Virus record (IMG/VR): IMGVR_UViG_2541047124_000012 | Location: 1-10,789 of that record | Origin: a virus | Taxonomy: Duplodnaviria > Heunggongvirae > Uroviricota > Caudoviricetes | DNA length: 10,789 nt | Direction: 5' to 3' (one strand) | In this document: piece after piece, positions 9,686-10,128 of the stretch | Numbering within the stretch: position 1 is the first letter of the stretch | How the letters are laid out: every line of letters begins with the position of its first letter | The notes under the pieces: generated by a model | Told to the model about the DNA's origin: nothing | The model's input: only the letters and a program-made list of their open reading frames with translations | The model's database searches: none | Position numbers and translations under genes: made by a program

Positions 9686-9764
9686 GCGAAAACGGTTTGC
9701 TGTAACGGCAGAGTTAAGTAGGATTGCTGCGGGTGCTTGAGGCTATCTGCCTCGGGCATGAACA

Positions 9765-9830
9765 CCAACGGCAGATAGATAAAAGCCCCACCCGACTATA
9801 AATCGAAGTGAGGCCCCTATATGCTCGTCA
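9765..9830 (-). ncRNA. sok: Candidate Sok-like antisense RNA (position approximate)
   Basis: Placed by analogy with hok/sok loci, where the antisense RNA overlaps the mok translation-initiation region. Exact ends and promoter not resolved by eye. Confidence 0.3.
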
Positions 9831-10033
9831 CATATAGATTGCCTCTTACGGACCGAAAGGTCAAGGAGAAGCAGGCTATGAAGCAGCAAAAGGCGATGTT
9901 AATCGCCCTGATCGTCATCTGTTTAATCGTCATAGTGACGGCACTGGTAACGAGGAAAGACCTCTGCGAGGTACGAATCCGAACCGGCCAGACGGAGGTC
10001 GCTGTCTTCACAGCTTACGAACCTGAGGAGTAA
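9821..10033 (+). CDS. mok: mok-like reading frame, an in-frame upstream extension of hok
   Basis: Track ORF 9821..10033 starts 57 nt upstream of the hok ATG in the same frame, as in the chromosomal mokC/hokC arrangement I recall. Confidence 0.5.
   Translation: MLVTYRLPLTDRKVKEKQAMKQQKAMLIALIVICLIVIVTALVTRKDLCEVRIRTGQTEVAVFTAYEPEE
9878..10033 (+). CDS. hok: Hok-family type I toxin (HokC/HokD-like small membrane protein), 51 aa
   Basis: Translation MKQQKAMLIALIVICLIVIVTALVTRKDLCEVRIRTGQTEVAVFTAYEPEE is near-identical to Hok/Gef/RelF family members as I recall them. The flanking mRNA elements (tac, fbi, terminator) are described in the findings. Confidence 0.9.
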   Translation: MKQQKAMLIALIVICLIVIVTALVTRKDLCEVRIRTGQTEVAVFTAYEPEE

Positions 10034-10103
10034 GAGACCAGGCGGGGGAGAAATCCCTCGCCACCTCTGATGTGTCAGGCATCCTCAACGCACCCGCACT
10101 TAA

Positions 10104-10128
10104 CCCGCTTCGGCGGGTTTTTGTTTTT
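10104..10128 (+). terminator. Rho-independent terminator of the hok mRNA
   Basis: GC hairpin CCCGC-TTCG-GCGGG (10104..10117) followed by TTTTTGTTTTT. Confidence 0.7.

Follow-up and report, generated by a model that had tools for sequence, protein, structure and literature searches.

Is the hok gene that lies towards the end of a 10,789-nucleotide (nt) stretch of Caudoviricetes DNA (IMG/VR record IMGVR_UViG_2541047124_000012, positions 1 to 10,789; the whole stretch is called the window here) part of a complete hok/mok/sok locus with the RNA elements that control the toxin still in place, or is it a decayed relic? Since the 1980s the hok/sok family has served as a paradigm for the control of toxin expression by RNA. 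The original prediction, made from the letters of the DNA alone, described a complete type I toxin-antitoxin (TA) locus with a promoter, fold-back pairing of the mRNA ends, a mok-like frame and a strong terminator, and left the antisense sok gene unplaced. Our analysis identifies the window as a lambdoid prophage of E. coli O157:H7 that very probably carries a complete hok/mok/sok locus, which by homology would operate through a mechanism like that of plasmid R1. Each sequence-level feature of the hok/sok family that could be tested was found in the window, with the exception of a canonical Sok promoter. Coordinates below are those of the window and refer to the plus strand unless the minus strand is named.

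The toxin gene itself (9878-10033) is an intact open reading frame (ORF) of 51 amino acids (aa), named hokD in the RefSeq/PGAP annotation, that matches the Pfam family PF01848 (HOK_GEF) with an E value of 7.1e-22 and 77 bits (cutoff 22). The Rfam sok model RF01794 matches 9731-9880 on the same strand from end to end (model positions 1-157) with 103.9 bits (gathering threshold 59) and an E value of 3e-23. For the comparative work, one genome per species was scanned, yielding 34 loci, and copies from phage 933W, Rac-SA53, a P1-like phage, phage Evi, an IncY plasmid and an R1-like IncFII plasmid were added (L numbers below denote loci of this sample). Thirty intact loci from Escherichia, Kluyvera, Pseudocitrobacter, Photorhabdus, Pantoea and Erwinia were aligned, and counts out of 30 refer to this alignment. 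With both family matches and the helices kept in the 30 homologues, the call of a complete hok/mok/sok-type locus was upheld.

The regulatory helices of the mRNA are the next line of evidence. The translational activator element tac (GGGTGCTTGAGG, 9731-9742), at the 5' end of the predicted mRNA, can pair with the fold-back inhibitory element fbi (CCTCAACGCACCC, 10083-10095) near the 3' end, forming a duplex of 12 bp and -21.1 kcal/mol in which C10089 is bulged; this is the fold-back pairing with one bulge that had been proposed, and the minimum free energy structure of 9731-10126 contains exactly this pairing. It might be argued that tac/fbi and the other helices reflect fortuitous complementarity in an intergenic region of mixed AT and GC content beside a small ORF, for which the weak promoter consensus, and nothing else, can be cited. 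The probability of this is negligible: only 3 of 2000 shuffles of the 3' untranslated region (UTR) gave an equally stable tac/fbi duplex, the z-score of the fold against shuffles is -7.6, and the Rfam match given above and compensatory changes in three mutually exclusive helices across six genera speak against it as well. The covariation data have in fact already refuted it. In the 30 intact loci, tac/fbi cells are paired in 91% of cases with three covarying pairs (31-56% in slid controls), the metastable 5' hairpin formed by 9735-9743 and its 3' arm at 9749-9757 (9 bp) in 97% with two compensatory pairs (24-50% in controls), and the pairing of ucb with the mok Shine-Dalgarno (SD) region in 98% with two covarying pairs (18-45% in controls). 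The tac/ucb and SD-mok/dcb helices are about 100% paired and invariant, and so hold no covariation information.

The tac/fbi helix was also followed sequence by sequence. At least 10 pairs are formed in 28 of the 30 loci, and the individual duplexes show the exchanges U4-A to C4-G and G12-C to A12-U. The bulge is lost in Photorhabdus, Pantoea and one Erwinia tracheiphila locus (L033), while other Erwinia loci retain unpaired bases in the helix. Column-wise counts on the alignment are too low for Photorhabdus, Pantoea and Erwinia, because an fbi without the bulge falls one column out of register, and the per-sequence duplexes are the better guide for these genera.

Folding of the mRNA at different lengths reproduced the switch known from the archetype. 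The fold of mRNA positions 1-366 contains tac/fbi, with ucb (an anti-SD element, 9783-9791) placed through 9785-9789 on the mok SD (9810-9814); in the complete mRNA the pairing segment of ucb with the mok SD region extends over 9785-9791. The folds of positions 1-335, 1-340 and 1-345 contain instead tac/ucb (9783-9789 of ucb) and the sokT target hairpin (9810-9845), which consists of an outer stem between GAGGC (9810-9814) and the dcb sequence GCCUC (9841-9845), an inner stem, and the loop CUCGUCA (9824-9830). The inner stem is only 58% paired on the alignment, but this segment is hypervariable and its alignment unreliable, and the figure was counted neither for nor against the hairpin. The refolding from the full-length to the truncated form is the published R1 pathway (PMC9841398). 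The check by folding and covariation analysis that had been suggested for the locus thus came out in its favour, with tac/fbi, the metastable hairpin and ucb/SD-mok all kept through compensatory changes.

If these elements act as their R1 counterparts do, an mRNA of about 395 nt would be made from the promoter TTGCTG-16-TAGGAT, and while nascent its 5' end would be held in the metastable hairpin. Once the mRNA is complete, tac would pair with fbi and ucb would mask the mok ribosome-binding site, giving a stable molecule that can neither be translated nor recognized by Sok. Slow 3' trimming to the stem-loop at 10041-10062 would then take away fbi, after which tac would pair with ucb and the mok SD would enter the sokT hairpin with dcb, so that the trimmed mRNA would be both translatable and a target for Sok. 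As long as the unstable Sok RNA of about 50 nt is supplied, its 5' tail would bind the sokT loop and the duplex would be destroyed; when the supply stops, mok and in turn hok would be translated, and the 51-aa membrane peptide would kill or lyse the cell.

The promoter hexamers are where the original prediction had put them, at 9697-9702 (-35, TTGCTG, 3/6 matches to consensus) and 9719-9724 (-10, TAGGAT), separated by a 16-nt spacer. A promoter and terminator scan left both promoters, that of hok and that of Sok, unflagged, and the Sok terminator as well. As consensus scoring supports neither promoter, the comparative alignment was relied on instead, and in it the -10 reads TAnnnT in 31 of 31 related loci, 6 nt ahead of the conserved G-rich 5' end. 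A TTG-type hexamer stands 16-17 nt upstream of the -10 in many of these loci, and hokW of phage 933W has the same ACGGTTTGC context at the -35 as the window. In R1 the hok -10 is TATGAT at the same place, and the requirement for TANNNT has been demonstrated experimentally (PMC9841398).

The full-length hok mRNA is predicted to run from 9731 (within 1 nt) to about 10126. Homology to the window begins some 6 nt upstream of 9731, at the -10, and stops at fbi or at the terminator; these limits match the predicted transcript, and the conserved unit would thus be the transcript itself. The strong terminator that had been predicted was detected as an intrinsic terminator (10102-10129), composed of a hairpin at 10102-10119 with a 7-bp GC-rich stem and a TTCG loop, followed by TTTTTGTTTTT. 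Ahead of fbi lies the stem-loop of 9 bp with a GAAA loop (10041-10062) that presumably marks the end of the processed mRNA; all 30 intact loci have it, and several of them show compensatory changes in its stem.

The SD sequence of hok, AAGGAG at 9863-9868, belongs to a conserved CAAGGAG in the alignment. Codon 17 of hok (9926-9928) is ATC, encoding an isoleucine within the transmembrane segment, where all 30 sampled relatives have threonine (ACC or ACT); this residue is the single difference between the window Hok and K-12-type HokD. Near the C-terminus, the hexanucleotide TACGAA encoding Tyr47-Glu48 (10016-10021) is invariant in 30 of 30 loci, synonymous positions included. It contains the TACG motif (10016-10019; the Tyr47 codon plus G) of the hok mRNAs edited by TadA (hokB, hokC, hokD and hokE), the tyrosine codon being aligned with Cys46 of HokB. 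Given this invariance and the report that TadA editing recodes the equivalent tyrosine to cysteine in hokC, hokD and hokE (PMC12214031), the motif is a putative site of A-to-I editing, Tyr to Cys, in the window as well.

The mok-like frame named in the original prediction is present as a leader ORF of 70 codons (9821-10033), which is in frame with hok and thus amounts to an N-terminal extension that would give a 70-residue Hok. Its SD, GAGG at 9810-9813, lies 7 nt before the mok ATG and would be sequestered by ucb in the full-length fold; the context GAGGC is invariant in 30 of 30 loci, and an ATG follows 6-10 nt past GAGG in 30 of 31. The frame of mok is variable across the family and is not a defining feature of it: among 31 loci (the window and loci from L002 to L042), mok is in frame with hok in 21 and in the +1 frame in seven, two Erwinia loci have a 19-codon ORF in frame 2, and one locus (L025) lacks a start codon. 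This variability fits the view that the translation of mok matters and not its product (PMC9841398). In the R1-like IncFII copy (L042) mok is in frame with hok, and for R1 proper the published numbering (PMC9841398) implies an offset of one nucleotide.

Inactivated copies in the sample show what decay of such a locus looks like. K-12-type hokD (L005, and L018 from Kluyvera) is 98.9% identical to the window from 9865 onwards only; it has the end of relE directly upstream and is devoid of promoter, tac, ucb, mok and Sok. The window thus holds the complete form of hokD, and the K-12 gene is a remnant of it, truncated at the 5' end. In K-12-type hokC (L011, 1349-1460) and in the IncY plasmid copy of Salmonella (L041, 624-735), an insertion sequence (IS) element of the IS186/IS421 type (CATAAGCGCTAACTTAAGGG...) is inserted at an identical point in otherwise unrelated loci, inside the 3' stem-loop directly after GGGGAGnGATCCC, and fbi is severed in both. 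The GC-rich 3' stem-loop looks like a hotspot for IS insertion. Locus L004 has lost tac; L030 carries a frameshift and a degenerate fbi. The window has none of these lesions, whether 5' truncation, IS disruption, loss of tac or frameshift, and its description as an intact module and not a decayed relic therefore stands.

We located a predicted antisense gene, sok, at about 9829-9781 on the minus strand. The predicted Sok RNA of 49-52 nt (both ends are estimates) would begin with a 5' tail of 11 unpaired nucleotides and continue with a hairpin, closed by GCCUC/GGGGC, and a final UUUU; its folding energy is -18.7 kcal/mol. Its first six bases, GACGAG, are complementary to CUCGUC of the sokT loop, which contains the YUNR-type motif CUCG; motifs of this type reportedly play a role in rapid antisense recognition. 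A Sok-type RNA is encoded in 30 of 30 loci, either of a short class (about 50 nt) or of a long class (about 70 nt), and the 5' end predicted in the window coincides with the annotated position of sokW in 933W. Compensatory change is seen at four hairpin pairs of the short class.

The Sok promoter is the one element that departs from the canonical form. Its candidate -35, TTGACC (minus strand, 9864-9859), overlaps the hok SD region and is separated by a 17-nt spacer from the -10, CAATCT (minus strand, 9841-9836), which has 2/6 matches to consensus and aligns with TAAnCT in most loci and TATCCT in R1. A 1-nt deletion has removed the first T of the hexamer (T-12) and shortened the spacer from 18 to 17 nt. 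Cis-encoded Sok might accordingly be expressed barely or not at all, with Hok restrained by mRNA folding alone or by Sok supplied in trans from another of the many hok loci of the genome: the hexamer went unflagged in the promoter scan, and the change T-12C abolished transcription from the R1 hok promoter (PMC9841398). We consider this improbable. The hokC lineage of E. coli, E. albertii and Pseudocitrobacter (L012, L013 and L016) has fixed the same deletion, which there restores a 17-nt spacer beside the near-consensus TTGACC and leaves A-11 and T-7 in place. The compensatory changes that maintain the Sok hairpin indicate selection on the Sok RNA, and the identity of the Sok/sokT segment to other prophage copies, only about 41%, makes repression in trans unlikely. 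The more probable reading is that Sok would be made from its own promoter, the weak point of which is the non-canonical -10.

The low identity of this segment is itself an observation on the history of the locus. The segment 9790-9840 (mRNA positions 60-110) is about 41% identical to loci that are 98-99% identical to the window elsewhere (phage Evi, L040, and 933W, L036). Against Evi, for example, the stretch from tac to ucb is 98% identical and that from dcb to the hok SD 92%; the ORF reaches 99% and the 3' UTR 98%, but the Sok hairpin/sokT segment only 41%. The nearest Sok/sokT segment in our sample, at about 60% identity, is of the hokC type. The Sok allele of the window occurs in 617 of 5426 E. 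coli genomes, at a median of one place per genome and at most two. This pattern suggests that the Sok cassette has been exchanged between the invariant ucb, SD-mok and dcb boxes. One may tentatively go further, at odds that we put at well under even, and propose that recombination at these boxes swaps antitoxin-recognition cassettes and so creates mutually orthogonal hok modules, the weakened Sok promoter perhaps lowering the threshold for firing at prophage induction. If that were true, cassette exchange would explain how a dozen or more hok copies can reside in one O157 genome without cross-repression.

What would such a locus do for the prophage? Several points weigh against the view that it is active in nature. 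The hok -35 and -10 are weak matches to consensus (7/12 together), the change of Thr17 to Ile in Hok is specific to this lineage, and the Sok -10 has lost T-12. A preprint (bioRxiv 10.1101/2025.08.07.668861, citing Pedersen & Gerdes 1999) reports chromosomal hok loci without post-segregational killing, and expression, processing and toxicity of the present allele are predictions drawn from its sequence. Literature searches found no experimental work on this particular allele. The locus might thus be structurally intact and yet a physiologically silent passenger that never releases toxin under natural conditions, and the reported failure of chromosomal hokA, hokB and hokC to cause post-segregational killing or to be activated by rifampicin (same preprint), the weak hok hexamers and a Hok residue absent from 30 relatives could all be read in that way. 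We regard this as unlikely, since the regulatory helices and both ORFs are intact in the window, whereas truly inactivated copies are visibly damaged. Moreover, the prophage paralogue hokW-sokW is active and is induced upon prophage induction (PMC8621323), and prophage and chromosomal representatives of Hok are described as toxic on expression in the abstract of the same preprint.

On balance we favour a functional locus that would most probably serve the life cycle of the prophage. The two uses that come to mind, retention of the prophage and assistance to lysis at induction as in hokW-sokW, deserve about equal weight, and abortive infection would deserve less. The hokW-sokW system increases phage release after mitomycin C treatment and does not act in prophage stabilisation (PMC8621323). 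The stabilising or defence role that the original prediction attached to the module must be called speculation.

Many chromosomes of E. coli O157:H7 are 100% identical to the window over 9600-10200. Sequence related to this interval is found in 4721 of the 5426 complete genomes of E. coli, with a maximum of 10 places in one genome. The annotated neighbourhood begins with integrase, excisionase, exonuclease, dicB, ydfC, a cI-like repressor, a cro-like repressor, YdaT-like and DnaT-like genes and P, and continues with DUF1627, the adhesin gene paa, hokD, a rem-like ORF, DUF968, rusA, tRNAs, lysis genes and terminase, which places hok between the replication and the late-regulatory genes; the Pfam matches of the window ORFs are consistent with this lambdoid annotation. 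GenBank phage records named PPompW contain the same segment at 99.8% identity and annotate the 213-nt frame as 'gef: phage maintenance protein', followed by 'rem'.

Some features of the flanks may be recorded here. The interval 8784-9562 contains the gene paa (AcfC family, SBP_bac_11 fold), which is immediately upstream of hok, at the position that corresponds to relBE in the Qin prophage of K-12, and a terminator-like hairpin (9549-9562) that follows paa. A perfect 24-nt palindrome, CCGATATGGGAA/TTCCCATATCGG (9662-9685), has an EcoRI site at its centre and ends 12 nt upstream of the hok -35, with no run of T on either side; it occurs in two loci of the same prophage type (L001 and L037) and in none of 40 other loci, and it could serve to bind a protein or to insulate hok from paa. 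Directly past the hok terminator there is a promoter-like site (10142-10171; TTGAAG, 18 nt, TAGAAT) ahead of an 86-aa ORF (10251-10511), which has no match in Pfam or NCBIfam and is called 'rem' in the phage records.

The locus is already known in kind, its gene being annotated as hokD or gef in public records, and it is a complete, ordinary copy of the textbook hok/sok RNA-controlled TA module. Genes of this family are numerous in its host: 14 Hok/Gef genes were reported in O157:H7 Sakai (PMC2887945), and hok is enriched in prophages according to a preprint (bioRxiv 10.1101/2025.08.07.668861). What the present analysis contributes is the placement of mok, Sok and the RNA elements, for which RefSeq has no annotation at this locus, and the recognition that the gene truncated in K-12 hokD is complete in the window. 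Two features bear on studies of cross-talk among prophage hok loci, the swapped Sok cassette and the non-canonical Sok -10, and only these might make a small experiment worthwhile.

Compared with the archetype, hok/mok/sok (parB) of plasmid R1, the window has the same parts in the same order. In the 5' half both have a TAnnnT -10 at 6 nt before a G-rich 5' end, tac, the metastable hairpin, ucb and GAGG, and in the remainder both have the sokT hairpin, dcb, a Sok promoter lying over the hok SD, a Hok of about 50 aa, the 3' stem-loop, fbi and the terminator. Sok of the window, predicted at about 50 nt, is shorter than the 64-nt Sok of R1. The R1 Hok is only about 45% identical to that of the window, the Sok -10 is CAATCT in the window and TATCCT in R1, tac/fbi has its bulged C in the window, and the replicon is a prophage instead of a plasmid. 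The mRNAs are of nearly the same size (about 395-398 nt) and show the same predicted refolding upon truncation, whereas mok, in frame with hok in the window, is offset by one nucleotide in R1 if the published numbering is followed (PMC9841398).

Among characterised systems the closest is hokW-mokW-sokW of the Stx2 phages 933W and Sp5 of E. coli O157:H7, which is likewise carried by a lambdoid prophage of O157 and which experiments have established as a type I TA system, with tac and fbi as in the window, judging from the primer sequences (PMC8621323). From tac to ucb the two loci are 98% identical, their fbi sequences are the same, the ORFs are 94% identical at the DNA level, and mokW has 70 codons and is in frame, like mok of the window. 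They part in the Sok hairpin and sokT (41% identity), where the sokW hairpin is long (about 70 nt) and the Sok of the window short (about 50 nt), in the C-terminus of Hok (VDYESEK in the window versus TAYEPEE), and in their position in the phage genome, and no strong terminator is obvious after the hokW fbi. The chromosomal hokC/mokC/sokC (gef) of E. coli resembles the window in other respects: it has a Sok hairpin of the short class with about 60% identity in Sok/sokT, an in-frame mok, and the same 1-nt deletion, which yields a CAnTCT Sok -10 with a TTGACC -35. It differs in its ORF (83% identical DNA) and its location in the core chromosome, and the K-12 copy is cut in the 3' stem-loop by the IS186-type element. 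Finally, hokD (relF) of the K-12 Qin prophage is the near-identical gene from which the PGAP name derives, its 98.9% identity from 9865 on covering the hok SD, the ORF, the 3' stem-loop, fbi, the terminator and rem. K-12 hokD is defined by relBE upstream and by having no promoter, tac, mok or Sok of its own, and as the window differs in both respects, the name fits the toxin only and not the complete locus described here.

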